DNA of 45,700 bases from a virus (IMGVR_UViG_2563366840_000010:1-45700), one strand, 5' to 3'. Positions 7,833 to 26,692 are shown, counted from the stretch's first letter. Notes: generated from the sequence alone by a model not told the origin. Numbers and translations are program-made.

Positions 7833-9236
7833 TTATTGACGATTAAAGTAGTTAGAGTTTAGCTCTTTAGGGAAGTAGTGTTTACGATTTACCCAAACAA
7901 ATCCATCAACTTTTGATATCACAGCGACATCAACAGGCCCACCGACAGTTTCATAATCATGTGATACTTTTCTTTTGAATGCAGTGATGTTCACTAATGA
8001 TTCGGCCATATACGCAAGATCTGCCTTCCCAAGTGATTGCAACATCGATATCATTTTATTTGTATGGTTATTAACAATATAGCTTTCAAGTTTAGTATCG
8101 TGATCTTGTAAAAGTACGTTTTTGAGTTCCTCAATTTCACTGGAGAAGTGATTGGCTAGTACTCCATTGTTCATTGCAGGGAAAATATTGCTAGAAACAT
8201 AATGATTAAGCCGATCAAAAACTTCCTCTGTAAGAGTTCTGTTAAAATTAATGATGTTAGGGTTGCACCCATCAATGAAAGTTACTACTTCATCTTCTTG
8301 AGCAAATGGTATAACAAACCCCATATTGGTTACCTCATTATGGGATTTATCATCAATATTATGGATCATCAATTTGTTTTTAAAAATGCCGTAGATATGA
8401 AGAGTGCAAATGGAAGGGTAATATTCTTCCTCTCCATAACCTGTTATAACAATCCCTGAATATGTACGACTAGCATGGACTTTGAAAATTAAACAAGTGG
8501 AATATAATATGACTTTTTCCATAAGCTCTTGCTGTATATTTTCACAGTTATCAAGAACAATAATTGATGAAATGTATGGCGATATTAAATCTTGTATATA
8601 TGCTAAAGCATCATTAAACTCTTCTGTATCAAACCCTTCGAAAAAGAGATTATTCCTTAAGATTCCTATCTCTAAATCAAAGGCTTGCTTAACTATGTTT
8701 TGAAAAATAACATTGTCGAGTTCAACGGCGGGGTTCATTGTTAAATAGTTTACTACATTATTATCATTAATGTATCTCATCAAACCTTTGAGGTTATCAA
8801 CAACAAGGTTTATAACGCAAGCCTCTCTCATTTCATTTGTTATAAGGTCTGAGTTACCATTGATGAATTTTACAAAGTCATTAACATATTCTTTAATGGT
8901 AGGGAAACTAGTTTTCCCCAATTGTTTTCTATAGGATTTAATTATAAGTTCCCACGGTGCGCCACCCAGTGTCGCATTATTATAAATCATGATCCCCACG
9001 GGATGGTGTTTAGATAGTTCGAATAGTTTTTCCGCACTATTATTTATTTTTACTAATCTATTATGCTCTGTGGTGACTGCAGAGTCAGCAGCAAGGGCGA
9101 TTCCAGTATTATTTATTACAACAATCTCAGCTGTCATTGCAAAACATCCCGTGTAGTAGTGATAAATATTAATTAAATTGATAGTTTTTTTCAATCTAAC
9201 ATAAATGGCGGAATCACCCCCCAGTAAAGACATCAT
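7833..9236 (-). CDS. AT-rich accessory (moron) protein with proteasome-beta/HslV-like motifs; likely true start at 9137 (434 aa)
   Basis: Long ORF co-oriented with and 43 bp downstream of the repressor gene; visibly AT-rich; internal start gives MTAEIVVINNTGIALAADSAVTT; C-terminal VGGPVDVAVISKVDGFVWV. Confidence 0.7.
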   Translation of the reverse strand: MMSLLGGDSAIYVRLKKTINLINIYHYYTGCFAMTAEIVVINNTGIALAADSAVTTEHNRLVKINNSAEKLFELSKHHPVGIMIYNNATLGGAPWELIIKSYRKQLGKTSFPTIKEYVNDFVKFINGNSDLITNEMREACVINLVVDNLKGLMRYINDNNVVNYLTMNPAVELDNVIFQNIVKQAFDLEIGILRNNLFFEGFDTEEFNDALAYIQDLISPYISSIIVLDNCENIQQELMEKVILYSTCLIFKVHASRTYSGIVITGYGEEEYYPSICTLHIYGIFKNKLMIHNIDDKSHNEVTNMGFVIPFAQEDEVVTFIDGCNPNIINFNRTLTEEVFDRLNHYVSSNIFPAMNNGVLANHFSSEIEELKNVLLQDHDTKLESYIVNNHTNKMISMLQSLGKADLAYMAESLVNITAFKRKVSHDYETVGGPVDVAVISKVDGFVWVNRKHYFPKELNSNYFNRQ

Positions 9237-12290: not shown

Positions 12291-12473
12291 ACAACGCCAA
12301 ACTGGCAGGGCTTCCCGGAGTGGTACATCATCGATCAGGACTATCGGGGGCAGAAGTACGCGAAGGACAAGCAGGTTGCGCGTTGTGGCAACGCAGTTCC
12401 GCCGCCATTCGCCGAGGCACTGGTGAGGGCTAATTTACCGGAGCTTTGTCAGCAGAAAGAGATCGCAGCTTAA
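12291..12473 (+). pseudogene. remnant of a DNA cytosine methyltransferase 3' end (...ARCGNAVPPPFAEALVRANLPELCQQKEIAA)
   Basis: Frame opens after a stop at 12288 with no start codon; GNAV motif-X-like tail; overlaps a 66-aa ORF from 12233 in another frame. Confidence 0.5.
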
Positions 12474-12537
12474 TGTCCGAGTTTCAGAACATGGTGTAAC
12501 AAATCCTGCTACTTCAATGACGTAGATTCAAACCTGA

Positions 12538-12543
12538 TATAAT
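12538..12543 (+). promoter_or_regulatory. TATAAT -10 hexamer of a putative promoter for the 78-aa gene
   Basis: Perfect TATAAT 30 bp upstream of the ATG, with a TGAC-containing -35-like region. Confidence 0.4.
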
Positions 12544-12572
12544 TAGGCTCTTCACAACACGAGGAGCCTAAA

Positions 12573-12809
12573 ATGCACCATTACATGATCCCTATCAACG
12601 GAACTGTTCACCTGATCAAGACTGACTCTCTAATCCCTGAAGGGACTGAGTATAGCTTTGAAGGAGAAAGTCTAATCTGCGCTCATGCCACTTTTAAATC
12701 TGGGACGTATGGCTTCCTGATACCAAAGGGAAATCAGTTGAATAGAGAGCATGCGTTCTGGCATGTAAGTGGAATTCACCCTAATCCCCTGGGAATGGAT
12801 AAATCGTAA
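12573..12809 (+). CDS. hypothetical small protein (78 aa), moron
   Basis: GAGGAG RBS; lies between two diverged copies of the methyltransferase 3' end. Confidence 0.6.
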   Translation: MHHYMIPINGTVHLIKTDSLIPEGTEYSFEGESLICAHATFKSGTYGFLIPKGNQLNREHAFWHVSGIHPNPLGMDKS

Positions 12810-12827
12810 TCCATAATATGCATGCCA

Positions 12828-12864
12828 TCGTCCTGAACATACGGTGGCATGCATCCGGCACTAC
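12828..12864 (+). terminator. 13-bp-stem hairpin (ATGCATGCCATCG...CGGTGGCATGCAT) just after the 78-aa gene; no T-tract
   Basis: Inverted repeat with one mismatch seen directly. Confidence 0.4.
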
Positions 12865-12920
12865 AACAGAAACGTTAAAGTGCAAACAATACAATTCGAG
12901 CAATATTCAACCTGTCACAG

Positions 12921-13064
12921 ATGGCGAATACCACCGCCATTTCGTGCATTCTGTGGTTTCTATTACCCATTGCGTTAATGCTGTCCAATCATCAGCTCGC
13001 TGAGGCGCTGGTTAGGGCTAACCTACAGGAGCTTTGTCAGCAGAAACAAATAGCGGCGTAATAA
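12921..13064 (+). pseudogene. second methyltransferase 3'-end remnant (47-codon ORF ending ...AEALVRANLQELCQQKQIAA)
   Basis: ~80% identical at DNA level to 12411..12472. Confidence 0.4.
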
Positions 13065-13078
13065 AACATCGCTAATTC

Positions 13079-13106
13079 AACCCGCTACGGCGGGTTTTCT
13101 TTTTTT
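13079..13106 (+). terminator. intrinsic terminator (CCCGC-tacg-GCGGG + T-rich run)
   Basis: Seen directly. Confidence 0.65.
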
Positions 13107-13168
13107 ACTACTGACAGAAAATTAACAATTTGTGCTCTTAAAGCGTTGATCATTTCCGCGCATAGGTA

Positions 13169-13188
13169 TACTGTATAAAAACACAGTA
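13169..13188. promoter_or_regulatory. LexA (SOS) box TACTGTATAAAAACACAGTA
   Basis: Exact CTGT-N8-ACAG with TA flanks, 19 bp upstream of the dinI-like ATG. Confidence 0.8.
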
Positions 13189-13206
13189 AATGCAATGGGG
13201 GCCATT

Positions 13207-13440
13207 ATGAAAGTTGAATTAACCATTGATCGCATGAAAGAACTTCCTAAAGGCGCAGTACCAGCACTGGAGAAAGAACTGCTTAAGCGCCTGAATGATC
13301 ACTATGACAATTGCAGGCTCACAATCCGCCGTGCCGGGGCCGATGGGTTAAGTGTTTTTGGTGGTGACAAGGACGATAAAAAGAAAATTGAATCAATCCT
13401 CCAGGATACCTGGGAAAGCGCTGACGACTGGTTTTATTAG
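13207..13440 (+). CDS. dinI: DinI-like SOS-inducible protein (77 aa)
   Basis: MKVELTIDR...ILQDTWESADDWFY closely parallels E. coli DinI including the WESADDWF C-terminus. Confidence 0.85.
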   Translation: MKVELTIDRMKELPKGAVPALEKELLKRLNDHYDNCRLTIRRAGADGLSVFGGDKDDKKKIESILQDTWESADDWFY

Positions 13441-13557
13441 AATTGCGCTTAAGGCTGGCGCGCATTTTTCAGAATACCGCAATTTGCGTAACCCTCTGAT
13501 GCTGCTGCCGACAATCTTTAATCGCGTCTGTTAGTCGCTCGAAGGGAGAACATAAAT

Positions 13558-13806
13558 GTGAGTGATTCAGCTTTGCAAACGTCAGAAGACAACTGGTATG
13601 ACATTGTAAGAAGGTCTGACGGCTGCGTGGTGTTTAGCTTTCCTTCATCGGGCAGGCATCTAATTTATCGCGTCAATGGCATGGTTTCTATGCGGCCTTT
13701 GCTGGATGATGAAGAGGTCTTTACTCCTAATGGTTTTATGCAGTTTATTCACCGTCTCGGCTACCGGGTAACCCCACCTTCTGATAATATGAAATCAACG
13801 GTCTGA
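13558..13806 (+). CDS. hypothetical protein (82 aa, GTG start); candidate LexA-controlled antirepressor
   Basis: GAAGGGAGAA RBS; directly downstream of dinI in the same unit. Confidence 0.45.
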   Translation: MSDSALQTSEDNWYDIVRRSDGCVVFSFPSSGRHLIYRVNGMVSMRPLLDDEEVFTPNGFMQFIHRLGYRVTPPSDNMKSTV

Positions 13807-13840
13807 ACAACCGTAACCTACTGCGCCACGGAGAGAAACC

Positions 13841-14440
13841 ATGGCGCACGAACTACAACTCATCAAGCATTCCTCAGGAATCCTGATCCCCGCTACGCCG
13901 GAGACCAGTGATTTACTGCAATCAAAAATCAAACTCGGCTCCGTACTGGTGGCTGAGTTCCGGCAGGTACGCAACCCGGCCTTTCACCGTCGTTTCTTCG
14001 CGTTACTCAATCTCGGTTTCGAATACTGGGAACCCACCGGCGGGGCAATCTCCTCCAACGAACGCAAGCTGGTAACCGGCTATGCCAAGTTCCTTGCCTC
14101 ATTCGCGGGAAGTGAAGCAGCACTCCTGGATGCTGCTGAGCAATATCTGGACCGCATCGCCGATAAGCGCGCCGGTAGTATCAGCATCTGCAAATCCTAT
14201 GACGCATATCGTGCATGGGTGATCATCGAGTCTGGCCACTACGACGCCATACAGCTTCCCGACGGCACCCTTCGCAAACACCCCCGCAGCATTGCCTTTG
14301 CCAACATGGACGAAACCGAGTTCCAGCAGCTGTACAAAGCCGCGCTCGATGTTCTGTGGCGCTGGGTATTGTCCCGGGCATTCAAGGACCAGCGTGAAGC
14401 GGAAAACGCCGCATCGCAGCTCATGAGCTTTGCGGGGTGA
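13841..14440 (+). CDS. conserved phage protein of unknown function, nin-region (199 aa)
   Basis: Clean ORF with plausible start. Confidence 0.6.
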   Translation: MAHELQLIKHSSGILIPATPETSDLLQSKIKLGSVLVAEFRQVRNPAFHRRFFALLNLGFEYWEPTGGAISSNERKLVTGYAKFLASFAGSEAALLDAAEQYLDRIADKRAGSISICKSYDAYRAWVIIESGHYDAIQLPDGTLRKHPRSIAFANMDETEFQQLYKAALDVLWRWVLSRAFKDQREAENAASQLMSFAG

Positions 14441-14646
14441 TGGCGATGAAATATTCCTGGTTCCACCATCACGAATGCACAACCGATCAGGCCGACGAGC
14501 TGGTGGCCAGTTACCGTCGTCGTGGCGCCACGGTAGAACGTAGCCTGAATCGCGACAACATCACCTGGACTATCAGCGCAAAATTGCCTGAATGCGAGCA
14601 TCCGGCGCGTACACCAAGAACCTTTCGACAAAAGGTCTGGGGGTGA
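14437..14646 (+). CDS. hypothetical small protein (69 aa)
   Basis: Start overlaps upstream stop; ends just before the ninG start. Confidence 0.4.
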   Translation: MMAMKYSWFHHHECTTDQADELVASYRRRGATVERSLNRDNITWTISAKLPECEHPARTPRTFRQKVWG

Positions 14647-14648
14647 TT

Positions 14649-15260
14649 ATGGCTAAGTTACCGCGCCGGAAGTGCGCCAACAAGGAATGCCGCCAGTGGT
14701 TCAATCCAGTACGCGACACGCAGACCGTCTGCGGTTATGAGTGCGCCAGCGCCGTCGGGAAAGAGCAGACCAGAAAAGCCCGGGAGGCTGCACAACGCAA
14801 AGAGTCTGCCAAGCAGCGCGCCACTGAGAAGAAAGAACGTGCAGCCTGGCGCCAGCGTAAAGCTGCAGTTAAGCCGCTGAAGCACTGGATTGACCTGACT
14901 CAGCGTGCCTTCAACGACTGGCGGCGTGAAATGCTGCTGGCCGCCGGGCACGGCTGTATCTCCTGCGGAACCAAGACTGCGTTTGCCTGGCATGCCGGGC
15001 ATTACCGGACCACGGCAGCCGCACCACAGCTTCGCTTTAACCTGGACAATATCTGGCTTCAGTGCTCCGCCTGCAACGTCCACAAATCCGGAAACATCGA
15101 GGCGTACCGAGCCGCGCTGGTGGAACGTTATGGCGAAGAGCTGGTACTAGCGCTCGAGAACAATAACGCTCCGCATCGTTGGACTATTGAAGAACTGAAG
15201 GAAATCAGACTGACCGCGCTGGCTGACCTGCGCGCGCTGAAAAAGCAGGAGGCAGCATGA
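14649..15260 (+). CDS. ninG: NinG/Rap-like recombination protein (203 aa)
   Basis: Cys-rich motifs (CANKEC, CGYEC, CISCG, CSACN); listed ORF start trimmed to the ATG with GGGGGTG RBS. Confidence 0.75.
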   Translation: MAKLPRRKCANKECRQWFNPVRDTQTVCGYECASAVGKEQTRKAREAAQRKESAKQRATEKKERAAWRQRKAAVKPLKHWIDLTQRAFNDWRREMLLAAGHGCISCGTKTAFAWHAGHYRTTAAAPQLRFNLDNIWLQCSACNVHKSGNIEAYRAALVERYGEELVLALENNNAPHRWTIEELKEIRLTALADLRALKKQEAA

Positions 15261-15397
15261 CATTCGAATCCTATTTTGCCGATCACCTCCGCGTTCGCTG
15301 GCAGCGGCTTCGCTTATACCACTTTCCCGGCTCTGTGCTAACGGACTACCGGATACTGAAGAATTACGTGAAAACTTATGCTGGAGAAGCGCTATGA
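15257..15397 (+). CDS. small protein (46 aa) translationally coupled between ninG and Q
   Basis: ATG overlaps the ninG stop; stop overlaps the Q ATG. Confidence 0.35.
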   Translation: MTFESYFADHLRVRWQRLRLYHFPGSVLTDYRILKNYVKTYAGEAL

Positions 15398-16176
15398 ACC
15401 TTGAAAACACAGTGAAATACCACTTCGCTAAATCCACACTGATTAGCGATTCTCCGCGCGCTACCGCCTCCGATTCACTGACCGGTACCGACATAATGGC
15501 TGCCATGGGCATGACGCAGGAACGCGCCGCAATGGGTTACAGCGCCTTCCTCGGCAAGATGGGCATAAGCAATAACGACCGGGATCGGGCGATCGGTCTG
15601 CTGGCTGAGTACGCGATGACAAAATGCGACAAGGTTGCCGCACTGCGTAAGCTCGGTGCCGCGGTTAAACCTCAGGTGATGCACCAGTTGGCCACCTTCG
15701 CTTTTGAGGACTATTCCCGCAGCGCTGCCAGCGTGAAGCAGTGCGATTGTTGTGACGGTCAGGGCTTCATTGAGGCTGACGTGTTTACCAATAAATTCCG
15801 TAAGCCAGAAGGGAGAATGACCGTGTCCGGGATGGTGAAGGTCAAAGAATCCATCAAAGTGCTATGCAAAAAGTGTAATGGCTCTGGTGTGGTTAGTGCT
15901 TCTTGCAGTGATTGCCATGGGCGCGGCAAGGCAGTGAACCAGGCTCTTACTGAGAAACAGGGCGTTCCTGTTCTGGCTGACTGTAAGCGCTGCGGAGGGC
16001 GTGGGTATGAACGACTTCCGTCGACTGAAGCCTATGCTGCTGTATGCCAGATTACTGACGCCATTAGCCTGGACACCTGGAAAAAGTCTGTTAAGCCATT
16101 CTACGACCTGCTGATCACGAAATTTGATATCGAAGAGTCCTGGGCCGAAAAACAGCTTAAGCAGATAACGCGGTAA
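15394..16176 (+). CDS. Q: late antiterminator Q, lambda-Q family (260 aa)
   Basis: SDSPRATASDSLTGTDIMAAMGM matches lambda Q; zinc-finger CxxC pairs; followed by a pR'/qut-like sequence. Confidence 0.85.
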   Translation: MNLENTVKYHFAKSTLISDSPRATASDSLTGTDIMAAMGMTQERAAMGYSAFLGKMGISNNDRDRAIGLLAEYAMTKCDKVAALRKLGAAVKPQVMHQLATFAFEDYSRSAASVKQCDCCDGQGFIEADVFTNKFRKPEGRMTVSGMVKVKESIKVLCKKCNGSGVVSASCSDCHGRGKAVNQALTEKQGVPVLADCKRCGGRGYERLPSTEAYAAVCQITDAISLDTWKKSVKPFYDLLITKFDIEESWAEKQLKQITR

Positions 16177-16224
16177 CGCCTATAGCGATAGCCTATGATT
16201 TTGTCTTGGGCTATTTACTTTTCC

Positions 16225-16300
16225 CGAATCTGTGTTAATTTTGTCCCAACGATGGGTTAATTCGCTCGTTGTGGTAGTGAGATAAAAAGAGGCGGCGCTT
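16225..16300 (+). promoter_or_regulatory. late promoter pR' / qut-like region
   Basis: caacgatgggttaattcgctcgttgtggtagtgagat... appears near-identical to the lambda pR'-qut sequence as I recall it. Confidence 0.5.
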
Positions 16301-16381
16301 ACTACCGATTCCGCCTAGTTGGTCACTTCGACGTATCGTCTGGAACTCCAACCATCGCAGGCTGAGAGGTCTGCAAATGCA

Positions 16382-16441
16382 ATCCCGAAACAGTTCGCAG
16401 GTAATAGTTAGAGCCTGCATAACGGTTTCGGGATTTTTTAT
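16382..16441 (+). terminator. tR'-like terminator (long hairpin atcccgaaac...gtttcgggat + T-run), end of a 6S-like leader
   Basis: Seen directly; matches the lambda tR' region from memory. Confidence 0.75.
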
Positions 16442-16443
16442 TT

Positions 16444-16518
16444 GGGTCAGTCGTATAAAGGTCATTACGGAAGGCTGTTAACCTTCTTATCGTGGTTCGA
16501 GTCCACGCTGTCCCGCCA
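16444..16518 (+). tRNA. tRNA-Asn (anticodon GTT), phage-encoded
   Basis: Hand-folded cloverleaf: acceptor stem with one T-T mismatch, D-loop with GG, anticodon stem GAAGG/CCTTC and loop CTGTTAA, T-arm CGTGG-TTCGAGT-CCACG, discriminator G, CCA. Confidence 0.55.
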
Positions 16519-16554
16519 AACATGCTGGTTTAGCTCCAATGGTAGAGGTGGTAA

Positions 16555-16980
16555 ATGCCGAGCAAAGATTACTATCTTAATCGAAGGGCTAGGCTTGCTA
16601 AGGCCGTGGAAAAGTTGGGTGGTCGTTGCGCGAGTTGCGGATCCGAATATTCGCTTCAGTTTGACCACATAGACCCTTCCACCAAATCAGCAAATGTAAG
16701 CGAGATGCACTATCACTCAGATTCGGTGTTTTATGCTGAGGTTGAAAAGTGCCAACTACTATGTTCTGCATGCCACATTCAGAAAACCAAATTTGACCTT
16801 AGCTACTTAGTAGCTGGTGAGCTGAATGGTATGAGCAAGCTAACAATGGACAGCGTCCAGTTCATCAGAGAAAACTACATTCCACGACATAAGGTTTATG
16901 GAGCCAGAGGGCTAGGGAGAATGTTTGGTGTAACACATCAAACAGTGCTTTCAGCCTTAAATGGCGAAACCTGGAAATAA
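16555..16980 (+). CDS. HNH endonuclease (141 aa)
   Basis: CASCGS...DHIDP...CQLLCSACH HNH motif. Confidence 0.8.
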   Translation: MPSKDYYLNRRARLAKAVEKLGGRCASCGSEYSLQFDHIDPSTKSANVSEMHYHSDSVFYAEVEKCQLLCSACHIQKTKFDLSYLVAGELNGMSKLTMDSVQFIRENYIPRHKVYGARGLGRMFGVTHQTVLSALNGETWK

Positions 16981-17397
16981 GCTGCGCGTCAGAGGTTCGA
17001 TTCCTTTGCCCGCTCCAGTAAAAGCTTTCCAGTCTGCGATGATGGGTTCCCCGGAGTGACTGGAAAGCGACCTGGTTTTGAATGGGCGCTGCTTTTTGCA
17101 AAATTGCTGTGTGAAAATACTGACCTTTGGGTTCAGCGCTCATCCAAAAGCATCACGTGAATTCACCAACGCTCATGTACTCTCCAGGAAACAATAAGTG
17201 ATTCTGAAAAGTTCCGGTTAGATATTGCCCCGGTCACCGGATGATTTTATCTTTTGGTTCGTGGTGAATCCCCCTATGCGGCGGGGCGTCCAGTCAAACT
17301 TTTTTGTCCAGGTTTGTTTGCGCGGAACTAGTCGGCTGGGGCTGTTCCACCGGGAGGCACCCGGCGCCACCTCCTTGACGGTATTGTTATTTTTCAT

Positions 17398-17424
17398 GCC
17401 TGTTCGTCCGAGCAGGCTTTTTTT
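17398..17424 (+). terminator. intrinsic terminator (GCCTG-ttcgtccgag-CAGGC + T7)
   Basis: Seen directly; no convincing plus-strand CDS upstream. Confidence 0.6.
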
Positions 17425-17455
17425 GCCCGCATTATCTTCATTGAAAACTGGCAAC

Positions 17456-17626
17456 TCAGAGAATCATCCAAATTAAAAAAGCAGCAACGAGAGCGATTAC
17501 TAATACATTCTTCGCTTTTTCTCTTCTGCTGGCCTTCACAAAAGGATTCACTATCCGGCAGTGGCTACACACAAGTGATTCTGGGTTAATTAACTTTCCG
17601 CAGTAGGGGCAGGGCTTGATAATCAT
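17456..17626 (-). CDS. possible small zinc-ribbon membrane protein (56 aa)
   Basis: Unlisted ORF MIIKPCPYCGKLINPESLVCSHCRIV... with hydrophobic C-terminus; no clear RBS. Confidence 0.25.
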   Translation of the reverse strand: MIIKPCPYCGKLINPESLVCSHCRIVNPFVKASRREKAKNVLVIALVAAFLIWMIL

Positions 17627-17833
17627 TGGTACTAATTAAGTTGTGAGAACGTAGTCTCATTTAACCACATTTATCGAGTTGTTTTACTAATGGTCTAGTT
17701 ATTTCAGACATATTCATCAATTTCAGGCTCACGGGAATCATCCGCTACGTGCTTTGTTGATAAATCCAGCCCGTGAAGCCTGACCCTTTTCAAACACACA
17801 CACAGCGCCATCCGAAAAATCGGAGGTGAGGCT

Positions 17834-18112
17834 ATGACCAGAATGAGCACCATTTACAGCAGACTTTCATATGGAACAGGAACCACGCTGACCGGCTGCG
17901 GTGTATCAGCGAAGGCATATGCCGAAACAGCTAAAACAGCAAAAGAGGTGTCCTGGATGTTGGCCGACAGAATTGCAGGGTTAAGCCTGAGCGACTGGGC
18001 AATTATTGTCGGTATCGCATGCACTGTTATTACCTGTGCAGTGAACTGGTATTTCCGCTGGAAAGAACGGGAGGATCGGCGCAATGGCTATGCCACCAAA
18101 GCTGAAGAATAG
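17834..18112 (+). CDS. pinholin, phage-21 S21-like (92 aa)
   Basis: GGAGGTGA RBS; two TMDs; C-terminus [11 protein letters not shown] parallels S21 YFKIREDRRK. Confidence 0.8.
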
Positions 18113-18656
18113 CGTTATTGCAGCGATACCCGCTGGCGCTATTGCTATCGCTGCGGCGTTGATTACTGGCCCAACGGGTAATGATGGCCTTGAAGGTGTA
18201 CGCTATCAGCCTTATCGGGATGTTGTTGGAGTGTGGACTGTATGCTGGGGCCATACTGGTAAAGATATTATCCTCGGCAAGACCTACACCAAAGCAGAGT
18301 GCCAGGCGCTGCTGGATAAAGACCTGAATATTGTCGCCCGACAGATTAACCCATATATCAATGCTCCGATCCCCGAAACGATGAGAGGGGCGCTGTACTC
18401 ATTTGCGTATAACGTAGGCGCGGGAAACTTCAAAACCTCCACACTGTTACGAAAAATCAACCAGGGTGATTCGAAAGGCGCATGCGAACAACTGCGGCGC
18501 TGGATCTATGCTGGTGACAAACAGTGGAAGGGTTTAATCACGAGGCGTGAGATTGAGCGTGAAGTTTGCCTGTGGGCAGAGAAACCTCAGGTTCTGGGGG
18601 ATGGACTCGGGCCGCTTAACCCTGGCATTCCGGTATCAGTTCCGGGGGTATTCTGA
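18084..18656 (+). CDS. SAR endolysin, GH24 lysozyme, R21-like (190 aa)
   Basis: N-terminal signal-anchor [27 protein letters not shown] and lysozyme core close to phage 21 R as recalled. Confidence 0.85.
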
Positions 18657-19192
18657 TGAAACCCAGAAAAATTACGATTGTTGCGGTTCTGCTGGTGGCT
18701 GTCGTAATCATTATTGCAGTGCTTAGCGTATTACTGGTTCGTAGCCGCTCAGCTCTTGAAACAGAACAGAGTGAGAATCGGGTATTACGTAATGATAACG
18801 CGCTGCAGGCGACGGTGATAACTACACAGGCTTTCAACTTCAATCGGTTTAACCAGATAGCAGAGAACGCCAACCGCCTTAACTCGCTGATCGATGCCGG
18901 TACTGAGAAAACTGTCATCGAATACCGGGAGATTCTCCGACGTGAAAAGACCTGTGATCTGCCTGTTCCTGCTGATGTCGCTGGTGGGCTGCTCAAATAC
19001 GCGTACCGTTTACGTGCCAGCGCAATGCACCCCGATACCGGGAACACTAACGCAACCGATGATAGTACCGCTGCCGCCAGCTCAATGACGTATTGCCAGG
19101 CCGTCCTCTGGATTGAACCTTTGCTGGCTGTTATTGAGAAGGGCAACAATAACCTGGCGGGTATACGAGAGATTGAGAAGTTACGAAAATGA
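18656..19192 (+). CDS. i-spanin (Rz-like), N-terminal TMD (178 aa)
   Basis: ATG overlaps the endolysin stop; embedded lipoprotein ORF in +1 frame. Confidence 0.6.
   Translation: MKPRKITIVAVLLVAVVIIIAVLSVLLVRSRSALETEQSENRVLRNDNALQATVITTQAFNFNRFNQIAENANRLNSLIDAGTEKTVIEYREILRREKTCDLPVPADVAGGLLKYAYRLRASAMHPDTGNTNATDDSTAAASSMTYCQAVLWIEPLLAVIEKGNNNLAGIREIEKLRK
18894..19088 (+). CDS. o-spanin (Rz1-like) lipoprotein embedded in Rz; start possibly GTG at 18942
   Basis: Lipobox LVGC, Pro-rich C-terminus. Confidence 0.55.
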   Translation: MPVLRKLSSNTGRFSDVKRPVICLFLLMSLVGCSNTRTVYVPAQCTPIPGTLTQPMIVPLPPAQ

Positions 19193-19454
19193 ATAATGTC
19201 CGTTGACATTGTTAGGGTGATTCTCATTTAACAACCTCAACTGCTACATTACAGTGCTTCATCATGCAATTAGCTTTTTCACCAATGGCTTAGATCCAGT
19301 GAAAGTTACTGACGTTATCTAATGACAAGATGAACGTAGCTTTTGTGTAGTTTTTCAGCGAATAGGATTATCTGAATTTAGCATTTTTGGCTTGTATAAA
19401 CTGTGGGTAAGTAGCTATAGTCACGTCATAGATAGTATTTTTGCATCTTTTTCA

Positions 19455-19480
19455 AGCCTCTTTTGAGGCTTTTTGCACAT
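19455..19480 (+). terminator. hairpin AAGCCTC-tttt-GAGGCTT + TTTTG
   Basis: Seen directly, ~260 bp after Rz. Confidence 0.4.
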
Positions 19481-19562
19481 TTAAATATGACAACAATGGC
19501 ACATATAGTATGTCCCCCTTGGCACAGGCACTATATGTAGCGCTATAAAAGGAGCTATCATT

Positions 19563-19763
19563 ATGACCCCAGCTGAGTTCTACGATGTTTACAATATCAA
19601 ACCGGCAGAAATGTTGACTGGTGAAACTGTTAACAACTTCGCTTCTCGTGTAATGGCACAGCAAACTAGTACGAGTGGAAACACAGGTGTTTGGTACTCA
19701 CAAGGTACCGCTACACAATCGAAGCAAAACCAAACTACAAGTCATCAACTTTACACGTACTGA
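19563..19763 (+). CDS. hypothetical small protein (66 aa), first gene of an AT-rich two-gene cassette
   Basis: AAAGGAG RBS; Q/T/S-rich C-terminus. Confidence 0.6.
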   Translation: MTPAEFYDVYNIKPAEMLTGETVNNFASRVMAQQTSTSGNTGVWYSQGTATQSKQNQTTSHQLYTY

Positions 19764-19766
19764 TTT

Positions 19767-20669
19767 ATGCCTAATTGGAGCGACGTACTGGGCGAGATAA
19801 CGGCTCTCGCCCATAAAAGTCCTATGGATGAGGTTCGCCGTAAATACTTATCTCAACTTTCGAATCATACTGGAAGAAATGTAATCACATATTACTCAGG
19901 GTGGTTACAGCATGGTGGTGCAGAAGTACGCCATCTTACTCAGATGACTGATGATGATAAGAACGGGTTGATGACAGCCATCAATGGTTTAGATGTATCA
20001 AAAGGGTTGGATTTGATACTTCATACTCCAGGTGGTGATATTGCCGCTTTGGAATCAATCGGGCATTACTTAAGGTCGAAGTTTGGAACTAACATCAGAG
20101 CAATTGTTCCTATGATTTCAATGTCCTGCGGAACTATGCTTGCATGTTGTGCCAATGAAATCATCATGGGTAAACAGTCCAACATTGGCCCAATTGATCC
20201 TCAGTTCAACGGTTTCTCCACCCATGCCATCATTGAAGAATGGAATCGTGCGCAGACGGAAATTTTTCAAAATCCCGCAGCTGTTCAGATGTGGCAGTTC
20301 ATTCTTCAAAAGCTAAACCCGACGATCATCGGCGAGTGTGAGAAAGCAATCAAATGGGCAAATGAGATTGTTAAGCATTGGCTTATGACAGGCATGTTTG
20401 ATAATGATCCTGAGGCAGAATCAAAAGCAACACATGTTTGTTCAGAGTTAAACAACCATCACACAACCTATACCCACTCGCGTCATATTCATTTTGATAA
20501 GGCGCAGAAAATTGGGTTGAATGTTACCGAACTTGAAAGTGATCAAGTACTTCAAGATTTGGTTTTGACTATACATCACAGCTACATGCATTCTTTTGGT
20601 GGAGCACCACTGGCAAAAATCATTGAAAATCATAACGGTAACGCAATGATTTGGAATATCCAGTCTTAA
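19767..20669 (+). CDS. ClpP/S49-fold (SDH-type) serine peptidase-like protein (300 aa)
   Basis: LHTPGGDIAALESIGHYL and SMSCGTMLACCANEI segments resemble ClpP/SppA-fold peptidases; start 3 nt after the upstream stop. Confidence 0.65.
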   Translation: MPNWSDVLGEITALAHKSPMDEVRRKYLSQLSNHTGRNVITYYSGWLQHGGAEVRHLTQMTDDDKNGLMTAINGLDVSKGLDLILHTPGGDIAALESIGHYLRSKFGTNIRAIVPMISMSCGTMLACCANEIIMGKQSNIGPIDPQFNGFSTHAIIEEWNRAQTEIFQNPAAVQMWQFILQKLNPTIIGECEKAIKWANEIVKHWLMTGMFDNDPEAESKATHVCSELNNHHTTYTHSRHIHFDKAQKIGLNVTELESDQVLQDLVLTIHHSYMHSFGGAPLAKIIENHNGNAMIWNIQS

Positions 20670-20687
20670 TCCCCCCTGTCTGATTCC

Positions 20688-20716
20688 AGCCTCGCCTATG
20701 CGGGGCTTTTTTATTT
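20688..20716 (+). terminator. intrinsic terminator (AGCCTCGC-ctat-GCGGGGCT + TTTTTTATTT)
   Basis: Seen directly after the cassette. Confidence 0.7.
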
Positions 20717-20790
20717 GCGGTACGCAGCACACAGAACCCACTACCTGGGACCCTTCGGCCAGAGAGCCGACATTGCCTTACCCTCACATT

Positions 20791-20816
20791 GCCAGCCTGT
20801 CGCTGGCTTTTTTATT
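20791..20816 (+). terminator. second intrinsic terminator (GCCAGC-ctgtc-GCTGGC + TTTTTTATTT)
   Basis: Seen directly. Confidence 0.7.
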
Positions 20817-20889
20817 TGCGATGTCCGGTCGTTGTTTCCTGGCATCCTTCCACTCTACACAAACAGCACCCCGTTCCTTCGGAGGTGAT

Positions 20890-21207
20890 ATGGCAAAGCG
20901 TATGAATGACGACCACAAAATTGTAGGCCTGTCCTGGTTAGTCCTGCTCGGCATTGCATGCTGGGGCGGTTTAGTTCGCTACCTGATCGACGTAAAGCAG
21001 AATAAAGCGACATGGAGCTGGATAAACGCGCTGGCACAGATCGCTGTCTCCGGCTTTACCGGTTTGATTGGCGGGTTGATAAGCGTGGAGAGTGGGTTGA
21101 GTTTTCACATGATCCTTGTCACGTCCGGCATTAGCGGGGCGATGGGTTCAGTGGCTCTGACCTATTTCTGGGAACGCTTGACGGGGATGAAGAATGCAAA
21201 CCAGTGA
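20890..21207 (+). CDS. holin, class I, 3 TMD (105 aa), second lysis cassette
   Basis: GGAGGTGA RBS; three hydrophobic segments, charged C-terminus. Confidence 0.7.
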   Translation: MAKRMNDDHKIVGLSWLVLLGIACWGGLVRYLIDVKQNKATWSWINALAQIAVSGFTGLIGGLISVESGLSFHMILVTSGISGAMGSVALTYFWERLTGMKNANQ

Positions 21208-21634
21208 TAAAGGCATTGCCCTGATCAAAGAGTTCGAAGGTTGCAAGCTCACTGCCTATCAGGACAGCGTCGGCGTTTGGACGATCGGTTATGGCTGGAC
21301 TCAGCCCGTCGACGGGAAACCAATCCGTGCCGGGATGACAATTAAGCAGGAAACGGCAGAACGCCTGCTGAAGACAGGAATGGTCAGTTACGAAAGTGAC
21401 GTGTCACGACTGGTTAAAGTTGGCCTGACTCAGGGGCAATTCGATGCCCTGGTGTCGTTCACGTATAACCTCGGTGCGCGGTCATTGTCGACATCGACTC
21501 TCCTGCGAAAACTCAACGCCGGAGATTACGCTGGTGCAGCCGATGAGTTCCTGCGCTGGAATAAAGCTGGTGGGAAGGTGCTGAATGGGCTGACACGTCG
21601 GCGGGAGGCAGAGCGGGCTCTGTTCCTGTCATGA
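21194..21634 (+). CDS. soluble endolysin, GH24 lysozyme (146 aa)
   Basis: EFEGCKLTAYQDSVGVWTIGYG catalytic region typical of T4/P22-type lysozymes. Confidence 0.85.
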   Translation: MQTSDKGIALIKEFEGCKLTAYQDSVGVWTIGYGWTQPVDGKPIRAGMTIKQETAERLLKTGMVSYESDVSRLVKVGLTQGQFDALVSFTYNLGARSLSTSTLLRKLNAGDYAGAADEFLRWNKAGGKVLNGLTRRREAERALFLS

Positions 21635-22101
21635 TTGGCGCGCTGGTTAAGCGTTACTGGCTGCAACTGATTGTGGTGTCGGTAATCGGCGTGCTGGCGT
21701 TCTTCGTTAACCACTACCGCGACAACGCCATCACCTACAAAGACCAGCGCGACAAGGCAATTGAGAATCTCAGCCTTGCGAAAAATACCATCGATGACAT
21801 GAAGGTGCGCCAGCGTGATGTCGCTGCACTGGATGCCAAATACACCGGAGAACTGGCTGATGCGAAAGAAACCATTGAGCGTCTGCATAGCGATGTCATT
21901 GCTGGCCGTAAGCGGCTGCAGCTCAACGCAAACTGTCCCGCGAACGGAACGACCAGCACCGGCGGCCTGGGCGATGTTACCGGCCCCCGACTTACTGACT
22001 CCGCTGAACGGGATTATTTCACCCTCAGAGAGCGAATCGTCACAGTGACGAAACAGGTTGGATATTTGCAGGAATACATCAAAGAGCAGTGCTTAAATTG
22101 A
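21631..22101 (+). CDS. i-spanin Rz (156 aa)
   Basis: N-terminal TMD, coiled-coil-like body, embedded Rz1. Confidence 0.7.
   Translation: MIGALVKRYWLQLIVVSVIGVLAFFVNHYRDNAITYKDQRDKAIENLSLAKNTIDDMKVRQRDVAALDAKYTGELADAKETIERLHSDVIAGRKRLQLNANCPANGTTSTGGLGDVTGPRLTDSAERDYFTLRERIVTVTKQVGYLQEYIKEQCLN
21860..22048 (+). CDS. o-spanin Rz1 lipoprotein (62 aa)
   Basis: Lipobox LLAVSGC; C-terminal TPLNGIISPSE matches lambda Rz1. Confidence 0.7.
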   Translation: MRKKPLSVCIAMSLLAVSGCSSTQTVPRTERPAPAAWAMLPAPDLLTPLNGIISPSESESSQ

Positions 22102-23910: not shown

Positions 23911-24058
23911 TGTCCCATGTCCCACCTCTGGCGATCATTACGGACACCTCGCCAGCTCTGGCTATTCCAGTTTATTCCAGTGGGACATTCTGGTGGGACA
24001 TGGCAAAAATGTCCCAGGCGAATGTCCCACCCCAGAAAATGTCCCAGGTGATGTCCCA
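23911..24058. repeat. array of eight ATGTCCCA-type heptamer repeats (six direct, two inverted) upstream of the small terminase gene; candidate cosB-like sites
   Basis: TGTCCCA at 23911, 23919, 24010, 24023, 24039, 24052; TGGGACA at 23981, 23994. Confidence 0.5.
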
Positions 24059-24627
24059 TGACCACGATGAACCAGAGTCAGTACGCACAACATTCAGGTG
24101 TGGATCGCAAAACAATTGGCCGGTGGATTAAAGCCGGGCGCTTCATTGTGATGGACGGAGACCTGATTGACGTAGAGGCCAGCGATGCGGCATTGAAGAA
24201 AAACCGCGATGGCAAAGACCCGCGCGCCTCGAACGCGAAGAAAAAGAAAACTCCCGTCGTTAGCGATAACGATGATGACGGTGATGAAATCAATAAAACT
24301 GTCCGCCAGATAATGCTCACTGAAGGGGCAGATCTTTCGAGAGAGGAAGCGGGACGTATCCGCGAGAATTACATGGCCCTGCAGGCAAAGCTGCAGTATG
24401 AAAAAGACAGCGGCCAGCTTATTGAGCTGACAGCAGCCGAGGAGGTTTTATTCAACGCCTTTCGCCAACAGCGTGATGCCTGGCTTAACTGGCCGTCCAG
24501 GGTGGCGCCGCTAATGGCTGCTGATCTGGATGTACCGGCGGACAGGATGACAGAGGTGCTGATTGAACATGTCCACAAACACATCTCAGTCCTCGGAGAG
24601 CCAGAGTTTAACCCGGCAGAAGATTGA
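24058..24627 (+). CDS. terminase small subunit, Nu1-like (189 aa)
   Basis: N-terminal HTH (RKTIGRWIKAG) and position before the gpA-like large subunit. Confidence 0.7.
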   Translation: MTTMNQSQYAQHSGVDRKTIGRWIKAGRFIVMDGDLIDVEASDAALKKNRDGKDPRASNAKKKKTPVVSDNDDDGDEINKTVRQIMLTEGADLSREEAGRIRENYMALQAKLQYEKDSGQLIELTAAEEVLFNAFRQQRDAWLNWPSRVAPLMAADLDVPADRMTEVLIEHVHKHISVLGEPEFNPAED

Positions 24628-26692
24628 GCGTCTTGAATTAAGCGTCCGCAAAGGCTGGACACCCCCGCCGCGTATCAGTGTGCCGCAGTGGGCAGATGAC
24701 TATCGTAAGCTGGCAAAAGAGGCTGGGAGCACTTCGGGAAACTGGGAAACATCGACGGTAGAAATTGCCCGCGGACCGATGCTTGCCGCGACGGAGTCCG
24801 GGGTTCATATCATCACTGTAATGTGCTGTACCCAGTTGATGAAGACAGCACTGCTGGAAAACCTTTTTGGCTATTTTGCCCACCTCGATCCTTGTCCGAT
24901 ACTGCTGCTGCAGCCGAAAGAAGAAGCCGCTGAACAGTTTTCGAAAGAGCGTATTAGCCCGCTGGTAAGGGTGACGCCGGTACTGCGTAAAATCATCGGT
25001 GATTCGAAACAGAAAAGCTCGAAAGAAACCATTCTTTACAAGGCATTCACTGGCGGATTTCTGGCGCTGGCGGGTGCTGGTAGCCCTGATAACCTTGCGC
25101 GTCGTCCGATTCGTGTCCTGCTGGCGGATGAAGTGGACAAGTACCCGATAACCCGCGAAGGCGATCCAATTGCGCTGGCCGAAGAGCGTACAGCGACATT
25201 TGGCCTGACCTGGCTGTCTGTACGCGCCTGTTCGCCGACGGTGGAGGATGAGAGCCGCATTGCTGACAGCTACGCCGACTCCGATCAGCGCCGGGCATCT
25301 GTGGTTTGCCCGCACTGTGGCCACCGCCAGTTCCCCGACTTTTTCAAACACGTTCAGTGGCCGAAAGAGGGAGATAAACACCTGACTAAATCGGCGATGC
25401 TCTATTGCGAATGCTGTGGTAGTGGCTGGTCCGAAGGACAGCGCCTCAGAGCTCTGCACACTATTCGATGGCATCAGACGCGCCCATTTGAGTGCTGCGG
25501 GGAGCGGCACTCACCGCTGATGGATTATGACCTTGCCTGGCGGGCGGCAGACGAGGGCAGCGTTGAAAAGGTCTGGCAATGGTCAGAGTCGGAACGGCAT
25601 GCGGTCTATCGCGCAATCTGCCCCTCCTGTGGAAAGGAGGCAGTCGATAACCACCACGCGGGGTACCAGGCATCCAAGCTTTTCAGCCCCTGGCAAAAAG
25701 ATAAGCCGTCGGATATTGCGAAAAAATATATCGATGCGAAGGGCGATCCGGATAAGGAACAGGCGTGGTGGAATACCCAGATGGGGCTTCCGCACCGACC
25801 TAATCATGGGAAACAGCTCCCTGTTGATGTTCTGCTGGCGCGCCGGGAAATATTTCCGGCCGTCGTTCCGGACGGGGTGGCATTGTTAACAGCTGGAGTT
25901 GATACCCAGGACGATCGCTTCGAAATTACGATCACCGGCTGGGGGAGAGATGAAGAATCGTGGTCGGTCGCGCATGACGTTATTTATGGTGACCTTGAGA
26001 CGGAAGAACCCTGGAAGCGACTGGATGCATACCTGAAACAGATCTGGCGACGTGGTGACGGGCGCGGCCTGAATATCATGGCAACGTGCATGGACTCCGG
26101 CGGCCACCATACGCAGAAGGTATACGAATTCGCCAAAGAGCGTCTTGGCCGTCGTGTCTGGGCAATTAAGGGGGAGTCTGCACAGGGAGGCAAACGCAAT
26201 CCTGTCTGGCCGACCAAACGACCATCATCGAAAAGCAAAGCCAGTTTCCGCCCTGTCATTCTGGGGGTTAACTCAGCGAAAGACGTGATACGCGGTCGCC
26301 TGCATCTTGAGCCACCCAAACCTGGCGCCGCCGCTGCGGGTTATATGCATTTTCCTGACGATCGCGATCTCGGGTACTTCAATCAGCTGCTGGCGGAGCG
26401 ACTGGTTTACAAAGTCATTTCCGGGCAGCGGTACAGTATCTGGGAAGCAATACCAGGACGAGCTAACGAAGCGCTTGACTGCCTCGTTTACAGCTATGCC
26501 GCGCTGTGCGGTCTCAAACATATGGGGTTAAAACTCAACGTCCGGGCCGCCAACCTCGAAGCCGATCCGGATAAGTTCCTGCCAGCGCCAGTTGGACAGG
26601 AAGAAAAAATCAATTACGAGCTGCCGGGTGCGGTTATTGAAGAACCAGCGCCGGTCAAACGTAAGCGAATATCGCAACTCCTGCCGAAATAA
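24563..26692 (+). CDS. terminase large subunit, lambda gpA family (709 aa)
   Basis: N-terminus MNMSTNT..VPQWADDYRKL parallels lambda A; CPHCGHRQF zinc-finger region. Confidence 0.9.
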   Translation: MNMSTNTSQSSESQSLTRQKIERLELSVRKGWTPPPRISVPQWADDYRKLAKEAGSTSGNWETSTVEIARGPMLAATESGVHIITVMCCTQLMKTALLENLFGYFAHLDPCPILLLQPKEEAAEQFSKERISPLVRVTPVLRKIIGDSKQKSSKETILYKAFTGGFLALAGAGSPDNLARRPIRVLLADEVDKYPITREGDPIALAEERTATFGLTWLSVRACSPTVEDESRIADSYADSDQRRASVVCPHCGHRQFPDFFKHVQWPKEGDKHLTKSAMLYCECCGSGWSEGQRLRALHTIRWHQTRPFECCGERHSPLMDYDLAWRAADEGSVEKVWQWSESERHAVYRAICPSCGKEAVDNHHAGYQASKLFSPWQKDKPSDIAKKYIDAKGDPDKEQAWWNTQMGLPHRPNHGKQLPVDVLLARREIFPAVVPDGVALLTAGVDTQDDRFEITITGWGRDEESWSVAHDVIYGDLETEEPWKRLDAYLKQIWRRGDGRGLNIMATCMDSGGHHTQKVYEFAKERLGRRVWAIKGESAQGGKRNPVWPTKRPSSKSKASFRPVILGVNSAKDVIRGRLHLEPPKPGAAAAGYMHFPDDRDLGYFNQLLAERLVYKVISGQRYSIWEAIPGRANEALDCLVYSYAALCGLKHMGLKLNVRAANLEADPDKFLPAPVGQEEKINYELPGAVIEEPAPVKRKRISQLLPK

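Follow-up and report, generated by a model that had tools for sequence, protein, structure and literature searches.

One set of lysis genes per phage is the norm (PMC9025707). According to the same work, holins and pinholins abolish the proton motive force once they reach a triggering threshold, signal-anchor-release (SAR) endolysins are released by depolarisation, and soluble endolysins pass only large-hole holins. The subject of this report is a lambdoid prophage on a stretch of viral DNA of 45,700 nucleotides (nt), IMGVR_UViG_2563366840_000010:1-45700, the whole of which is referred to below as the window. It carries two complete lysis cassettes in tandem, cassette 1 (17834-19192) and cassette 2 (20890-22101), separated by a two-gene moron which encodes an SDH-type serine protease (the SDH moron). 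A preliminary description had pointed to the two cassettes and to the fact that one is normally enough, as the cited work states. We searched the literature for lysis cassettes in tandem, doubled or present as a second set, and no such arrangement had been described in lambdoid phages.

Coliphages HK225 and mEp237 have the gene order of cassette 1 and near-identical proteins. In HK225 the identities are 175/190 for the endolysin, 166/178 for the inner-membrane spanin (i-spanin) and 62/64 for the open reading frame (ORF) of the outer-membrane spanin (o-spanin). HK225 also has the antiterminator Q type and the pR' block of the window, but its only lysis genes are those of this cassette, after which the genome ends at cos, without the SDH moron and without a second cassette. 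Cassette 1 resembles the lysis genes of phage 21 (S21 68/71, R21, Rz/Rz1) in the SAR segment and E-D-T triad of its endolysin and in its small holin, which has a dual start, a charged C-terminus and a gene overlapping that of the endolysin. It differs in that the holin linker is 20 amino acids (aa) longer, the first hydrophobic segment is weaker and the HP1-type family scores higher, and its spanins belong to phrog_214 and phrog_456 rather than to PF03245 and PF06085. Cassette 2 shares Rz and Rz1 Pfam membership and the embedded spanin architecture with the P22-like/Gifsy-type cassettes and with lambda Rz/Rz1, but here it stands behind another complete cassette and the pR' that usually precedes it has been lost.

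In phage P1 (Lyz, LydA, LydB, LydC, LydD), too, a holin of the LydA family occurs together with a small holin of pinholin type and a SAR endolysin. P1 has, however, one endolysin and one spanin pair, in unlinked operons, and this is an old arrangement conserved with P7, whereas the window appears to hold two complete, tandem and self-sufficient cassettes that stem from recent recombination. The locus shares with lambdoid mosaicism in general its sharp junctions at intergenic terminators, an AT-rich moron with its own terminator, and the joint movement of Q and pR'. Usually, however, a module is replaced by its analogue; here one has been added, and two analogous modules coexist.

Two heterologous lysis cassettes

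Cassette 1 opens with the gene for a 92-aa holin of class II type (holin 1; 17834-18112, + strand). The protein matches phrog_20 (holin) and, over residues 38-80 only, two Pfam families, of which PF16080 (HP1 type; 1.7e-11, 44.3 bits) scores higher than PF04971 (S21 holins; 1.6e-7, 31.6 bits, with a cut-off of 26). It starts MTRM, a dual-start motif that gives the longer form an extra positive charge. The hydropathy plot has one strong transmembrane domain (TMD) at about residues 54-72 (Kyte-Doolittle value, KD, 2.05), and the N-terminal Gly/Thr-rich segment is weakly hydrophobic (KD 0.32 vs 0.56 for TMD1 of an S21-type holin). Holin 1 is 97.8% identical to the mEp237 holin and 94.6% to that of HK225, and 28% identical over 60 aa to the S21-type 71-aa holin of locus L011. 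Its size, its family and its pairing with a SAR enzyme suggest a pinholin, as the preliminary description had it; the PF04971 score above cut-off speaks for membership of the S21 holin family, and the higher PF16080 score and the low identity to an S21-type holin against it.

The next gene overlaps that of holin 1 by 29 nt and encodes a SAR endolysin of family GH24 (endolysin 1; 18084-18656, +; PF00959, 1.9e-44). The Gly/Ala-rich SAR segment occupies approximately residues 11-29 (KD 2.5 for residues 11-27), and a catalytic triad E37-D46-T52 can be read from the sequence in the pattern E-x8-D-x5-T. The protein matches PDB entry 3HDE, which we take to be the phage 21 endolysin R21, along its length including the N-terminus (E = 7.8e-90, approximately 82% identity), and the DLP12 lysozyme RrrD (4ZPU; 3.7e-89). 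The 178-aa i-spanin 1 (18656-19192, +) is a type II membrane protein with an N-terminal TMD; it matches phrog_214, “Rz-like spanin”, at 1.4e-56 and no Pfam family. Embedded in its +1 frame is o-spanin 1 (18942-19088, +, in an ORF that opens at 18894; phrog_456, 4.9e-7), with the lipobox LVGC, a Pro-rich mature part of 32 aa and a probable GTG start after GGGAG. Both spanins fall outside the Rz and Rz1 Pfam families. The label “phage-21-like”, which had been given to this cassette, therefore truly fits the endolysin alone. Taken as a whole cassette 1 is HK225/mEp237-like, its proteins being 87-98% identical to the sole lysis cassette of these plaque-forming coliphages.

Cassette 2 begins with the gene for holin 2 (20890-21207, +), a 105-aa protein of the LydA family (PF16083, 6e-21), which has three hydropathy peaks at residues 17-33, 48-64 and 74-90, corresponding to three TMDs, and an N-terminus MAKRM which is a dual-start motif of two Met codons with Lys-Arg between them. 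A strong Shine-Dalgarno site, GGAGGTGAT, precedes the gene, the nucleotide sequence of which is 87.6% identical to gene 13 of phages L and ST64T, both from Salmonella, and of PS3. Lysozyme 2 (21194-21634, +) is a soluble GH24 enzyme of 146 aa, with no hydrophobic segment anywhere along its length by hydropathy. PF00959 (2e-50) covers residues 12-140 and the triad is E15-D24-T30. Its structure matches include PDB 9KBQ (1.7e-51) and, end to end, P22 lysozyme (2ANV; 2.2e-32), and it is 97.9% identical to the lysozyme of Enterobacter phage ENT1 and 48.6% to P22 gp19. The cassette ends with the 156-aa i-spanin Rz (21631-22101, +; PF03245, 5.5e-42) and, embedded in its +1 frame, the 62-aa o-spanin Rz1 (21860-22048, +, in an ORF of 21815-22048; PF06085, 1.4e-14), which has the lipobox VSGC and the C-terminal sequence TPLNGIISPSE.

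All ORFs are thus in place on the + strand at the coordinates first described, all eight genes have family or structure matches with E-values well past chance expectation, and two complete cassettes of different lineage do lie in one prophage. Their holin-endolysin logics also differ, as had been claimed: in the one a small holin of class II is paired with a SAR endolysin, in the other a three-TMD holin with a soluble lysozyme. The holins belong to different families, the two lysozymes are 39% identical to each other, i-spanin 1 and Rz have no significant similarity, and a direct-repeat search found no long repeat linking the cassettes. Because the cassettes are heterologous in this way, a tandem duplication is ruled out.

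The eight lysis genes are full length, having been checked for length, internal stops and amino acid differences against single-cassette relatives, and the genes of both cassettes retain good Shine-Dalgarno sites and translational-coupling overlaps. In cassette 1 every protein has a 100% identical counterpart in the KL53 and L007 prophages, each of which has cassette 1 only, and is 91-98% identical to that of the viable, plaque-forming HK225. Holin 2, lysozyme 2 and Rz1 (62/62) are 100% identical to their counterparts in ET881, which has cassette 2 only. Compared with ET881, Rz has 34 nt and 15 aa differences, which are confined to its first 177 nt (21631-21807), and the remainder, including Rz1, is identical. 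The amino acid differences are mostly conservative and lie in the TMD. The closest allele among complete Escherichia coli genomes is at most 93.4% identical, but the exact allele is found in the single-cassette prophages L027, L029 and L032; the divergence is an ordinary mosaic patch and not decay. L027 pairs this same Rz allele with a holin of lambda S type (PF05106). Inactivation of either cassette by mutations not visible by eye, the outcome which would have undone the preliminary description, is ruled out, since every one of the eight proteins is identical to one in a single-cassette relative. The same comparison gives indirect support to the idea that each cassette would suffice on its own for timed lysis, as each occurs by itself in relatives whose proteins are identical.

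Junction, probable origin and recurrence

The window is bracketed by three relatives with one cassette each. L6-21 has Q, tRNA-Asn, an HNH endonuclease gene and cassette 1, then the same terminase as the window; in KL53, cassette 1 is followed by the SDH moron and a different terminase; and ET881 has Q and cassette 2, then the same terminase as the window. In a three-way alignment there is one sharp junction: the window is KL53-like up to 20713, with 3 mismatches in 4280 nt, and ET881-like from 20688. The recombination junction therefore falls in the 26-nt overlap (20688-20713, +), which is a terminator hairpin, AGCCTCGCC-TA-TGCGGGGCTTTTTTA, found in both parents and located by the alignment, by BLAST boundaries, by a terminator scan and by folding. 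The parental hairpins differ in the loop alone, and that of the window is of KL53 type. On the right-hand side the closest parents are L032 and L029, in which the sequence from 20688 onward departs from the window only in the loop and at a few distant single-nucleotide polymorphisms (SNPs). Since L032 also matches the window over 12305-15375 (97.7%), the backbone is shared and only 15376-20687 has been swapped.

In the cassette 2 parents this hairpin ends a 75-nt RNA of the Rfam IsrJ family (RF01393, 68.7 bits; 4951-5024 in L003 and 4006-4079 in L032), which starts just after a promoter of ET881 type, TTGCAA-N17-TATATT, that overlaps the Q stop codon. The IsrJ-family RNA is the short pR'-to-tR' transcript of prophages with a PF06323-type Q, which suggests that IsrJ-like small RNAs (sRNAs) are terminated late-promoter leaders. 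Promoter and leader are absent from the window, where the terminator alone survives. A promoter of its own for cassette 2 is rejected, as a consensus scan of the + strand over 20670-20890 gave none beyond chance and the parental pR' lies to the left of the junction. Cassette 2 has lost its native late promoter.

The arrangement is most likely a recent by-product of Q-module exchange. The recipient would have been a phage of L032/ET881 type with the order Q, pR', 75-nt IsrJ-like leader, tR', cassette 2 and terminase, and the donor segment, of KL53/HK225 type, would have brought a different Q and pR', tRNA-Asn, the HNH gene, an STnc100-family sRNA, cassette 1 and the SDH moron. The right crossover would then have taken place in the hairpin of approximately 25 nt common to the donor moron and the recipient tR', not upstream of the donor lysis genes; since this shared terminator follows the donor cassette and moron, the donor cassette would have been stacked in front of the recipient's own. 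The RecT/RecE functions of the prophage could have catalysed such a short-homology exchange.

Scaffold KB732923.1 of GCA_000351905.1 matches the window at 100% identity, and the same junction is present in an IMG/VR contig (L004) and in GCA_002228335.1 (L019). When the longest contigs with the exact Rz allele were collected from NCBI, ENA and Logan, 20 of the 24 had the full block, from cassette 1 through the moron to cassette 2. The ten genes show 100% nucleotide identity throughout in eight of these loci, and across nine loci the 4.3-kb block has not a single substitution. Upstream of it lie four different modules: a PF03589-type Q with the tRNA and HNH genes, two different PF06323-type Q regions, and one that encodes a kinase and a PP2C phosphatase. 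The junction is rare nonetheless, being found in 0 of 5426 complete E. coli genomes. Scans for the exact junction gave none in metagenome contigs and none in genome contigs, the latter a weak test as they represent one genome per species. Among 2011 phage records with a GH24 lysozyme there were 9 extra loci; at most 9 of the 2011 thus have two separate GH24 loci, and two GH24 genes in one phage are uncommon.

The moron between the cassettes (19563-20669, +) is AT-rich, with a G+C content (GC) of about 42-45%, and ends in an intrinsic terminator. Its genes are orf66 (66 aa; 19563-19763, +) and that of the SDH-type serine protease of ClpP fold (300 aa; 19767-20669, +; PF01972, 8.4e-23), for which the matches are phrog_25714 and phrog_11747, both of unknown function. 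The SDH moron occurs downstream of many different lysis cassettes, and in ten different contexts its homology stops at 20713-20715, so the terminator there is the regular right boundary of the moron. It always lies directly 3' of an i-spanin of phrog_214 type, whether the genes upstream are of S21 type, of HP1 type, or a GH19 gene with two holins, and this pairing holds whatever terminase comes next. The block shared by moron-bearing loci begins within the spanin gene, at approximately 18766-18804.

The late region and the remainder of the prophage

The prophage has a lambdoid gene order: integrase, RecT/RecE, a repressor-like helix-turn-helix protein, O, P, Q, lysis genes, head and contractile tail. 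From Q to the small terminase subunit at 24058 all major genes are on the + strand, and both lysis cassettes lie upstream of the terminase on one strand with the virion genes. Two neighbouring prophages are ruled out as the source of the two cassettes, as integrase, Q, terminase and the structural set are each present only once in the window.

The late-regulatory and lysis region extends over 15.4-24.7 kb. Q (15394-16176, +; PF03589, 1.9e-45) is of the same type as in HK225 and L006. A block that follows its stop codon (16195-16262, +; GCTATTTACTTTTCCCGAATCTGTGTTAATTTTGTCCCAACGATGGGTTAAT) is conserved with both and can be read as TTTACT-N16-TAATTT with a TG extension; it is likely to be the late promoter pR'/qut of the window. 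A tR'-like terminator, a hairpin followed by a T-run (CCCGAAAC...GTTTCGGGATTTTTTATTT; 16385-16443, +), comes just upstream of the gene for tRNA-Asn (GTT anticodon; 16444-16518, +; ARAGORN, Rfam tRNA 55.3 bits), and this is followed by an HNH endonuclease gene (16555-16980, +; phrog_4234, 1.5e-21; annotated as HNH in L6-21 and KL53). The tRNA and HNH genes, which sit between Q/pR' and the lysis genes, are also present in L6-21 and KL53 and are absent from dual-cassette variants B-D. Next comes a full-length match to the STnc100-family prophage sRNA (17236-17428, +; RF02076, 71.7 bits with a gathering score of 47), the terminator of which (17398-17417) is just upstream of cassette 1. The left edge, at 17261, of the block common to three of the four dual-cassette variants falls inside this sRNA, and in variant B a promoter-like sequence, TTGAAA-N17-TAAATT, lies directly upstream of it.

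The leader of cassette 2 contains a second terminator found by the terminator scan (20791-20813, +), which is identical in ET881. Cassette 2 is therefore preceded by two terminators, the hybrid one at 20688-20713 and that at 20791, and the same pair is present in the single-cassette parents. A 16-nt tail motif, designated D1, GG(C/A)TTTTTTATTTG(C/G)G, follows three different hairpins of the late leader regions, at 16431-16446 (the tail of the tR'-like terminator), 20704-20719 and 20805-20820 (that of the second leader terminator). Recombination between D1 copies could delete cassette 1 together with the moron, and these copies may be recurrent module boundaries.

The genes for the small and large terminase subunits (24058-26692, +; phrog_57 and phrog_15) are the first of the virion genes. 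They are followed by those for portal, protease, major head protein, sheath, tube, tape measure and baseplate, and the virion set appears complete. Just upstream of the small terminase gene, at 24006-24051, there are two copies of AAAATGTCCCAGG(C/T)GA 30 nt apart, which may be candidate terminase- or cos-associated binding repeats. The tape measure protein (35392-37320) has an internal segment resembling a lytic transglycosylase (residues approximately 393-526; phrog_873/phrog_7182), presumably a third muralytic activity of the prophage, for entry and not for lysis.

A Rac-like early region (integrase, RecET, YdaT, O/P) is joined in this prophage to a lambda-type terminase, portal and head and to a contractile tail, the sheath gene of which lies at 33093-34595. 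In related loci the same integrase adjoins opp-cls-kch, which are E. coli-type contexts. Beside the repressor gene, on the - strand (7833-9236), an ORF of 467 aa in an island of 33% GC is a candidate moron or defence gene, with no Pfam and no PADLOC match; PADLOC gave no defence assignment for this protein, the SDH protease, orf66 or a DUF2513 protein.

A proposed course of lysis with two cassettes

A single Q-dependent late operon would be consistent with the Q family, with the conserved block after Q, with the gene order and with the presence of five terminators on the + strand. Because cassette 2 has no pR' and the virion genes lie farther downstream on the same strand, we infer that Q-modified polymerase from the single pR' must traverse both cassettes to reach the virion genes, and both would thus be made late in infection. 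The two holins would build up together in the membrane. Depolarisation triggers holins prematurely, and whichever of the two triggers first would collapse the proton motive force, free the membrane-tethered SAR endolysin and set off the other holin. The soluble lysozyme would exit through the three-TMD holin of LydA type, the SAR lysozyme would be activated whichever holin fired, and either spanin pair could break the outer membrane. Cross-talk of a LydA-type holin with a SAR endolysin is plausible, since holins of this family cooperate with such an enzyme in P1. The faster clock would set the time of lysis, while the slower cassette, phenotypically masked, would be free to be lost. The redundant or hybrid lysis programme proposed in the preliminary description would on this model be a redundant state, and probably a transient step of cassette replacement in which addition comes first and loss later.

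We consider it probable that the locus is a by-product of a Q-module swap, with two intact tandem cassettes on one late operon which are redundant and probably transient. Several points weigh against this account. Without substitutions in the block the arrangement is young, and it carries no signal of decay or of purifying selection; the four left flanks could reflect either later swaps upstream or repeated formation at the hairpin, since the SNP pattern fits both; it is from the layout of the operon that polymerase is presumed to pass the terminators at 17398, 20688 and 20791; and the weak N-terminal segment of holin 1, with its better fit to PF16080, makes the protein no more than a putative pinholin. 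Selection might instead keep the double cassette, as a fail-safe or for condition-dependent lysis with two independent clocks and two export routes for endolysin in the manner of P1; lysis would then be robust whatever the host, the growth state or any lysis-inhibiting competitor. The block does occur with four upstream modules, and none of the contigs that carry it, at least 20 in number, has an inactivating change in any of the eight genes; in P1 the LydA holin, the pinholin and other holins cooperate with the SAR endolysin, their weight varying with host and growth conditions (PMC9025707). We nevertheless think selection unlikely: intactness is uninformative where the block has no substitutions, the arrangement is rare among complete genomes, and one-step recombination at a shared terminator suffices without any benefit. 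It is similarly doubtful that the block is a selected “two-clock” programme, a tandem analogue of P1 spreading among E. coli prophages through swaps of the upstream regulatory module. If it were, lysis timing would be robust or condition-dependent, and the locus would offer a testable case of its evolution by module addition.

That one cassette is effective and the other silent, be it through attenuation of cassette 2 at the terminators, through poor translation, or as inert lysis cargo of a defective prophage, strikes us as quite improbable. Two intrinsic terminators do stand between the SDH gene and holin 2, the native promoter is lost, and the window stops in the tail-fibre region so that completeness of the prophage is not demonstrable. 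But cassette 2 stands behind this very pair of terminators in the single-cassette parents as well, and they have no other lysis system; the genes from terminase to baseplate need the same read-through; and all genes keep good Shine-Dalgarno sites and coupling overlaps and encode proteins identical to those of single-cassette relatives. As the junction lies in a sequence of approximately 25 nt common to two prophage types, and the source is a scaffold-level assembly, an assembly chimera that joined two prophages of one genome at a short repeat also has to be weighed. It is effectively ruled out: junction and identical flanks recur in IMG/VR, several NCBI, an ENA metagenome and Logan Sequence Read Archive assemblies, which differ in pipeline and in upstream sequence, and the k-mers commonly used in assembly are longer than 25 nt. 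An identical block in independent assemblies with different upstream modules is not an assembly artefact.

Exchange at the shared terminator thus remains the account that we favour. The locus is a new arrangement of known modules, with no new type of molecule or mechanism. In it the two main Gram-negative lysis logics would be carried on one natural transcript, where the textbook picture is of one set per phage, and lysis timing is a central trait of phage fitness. Isogenic-looking single-cassette relatives exist for both cassettes, and together they form a system in which the dominant clock, cross-triggering in vivo and the cost of redundancy could be studied. A module exchange would here have been caught halfway, with addition before loss, and with its crossover placed in the shared terminator of a prophage sRNA it illustrates how lambdoid mosaic junctions may originate.

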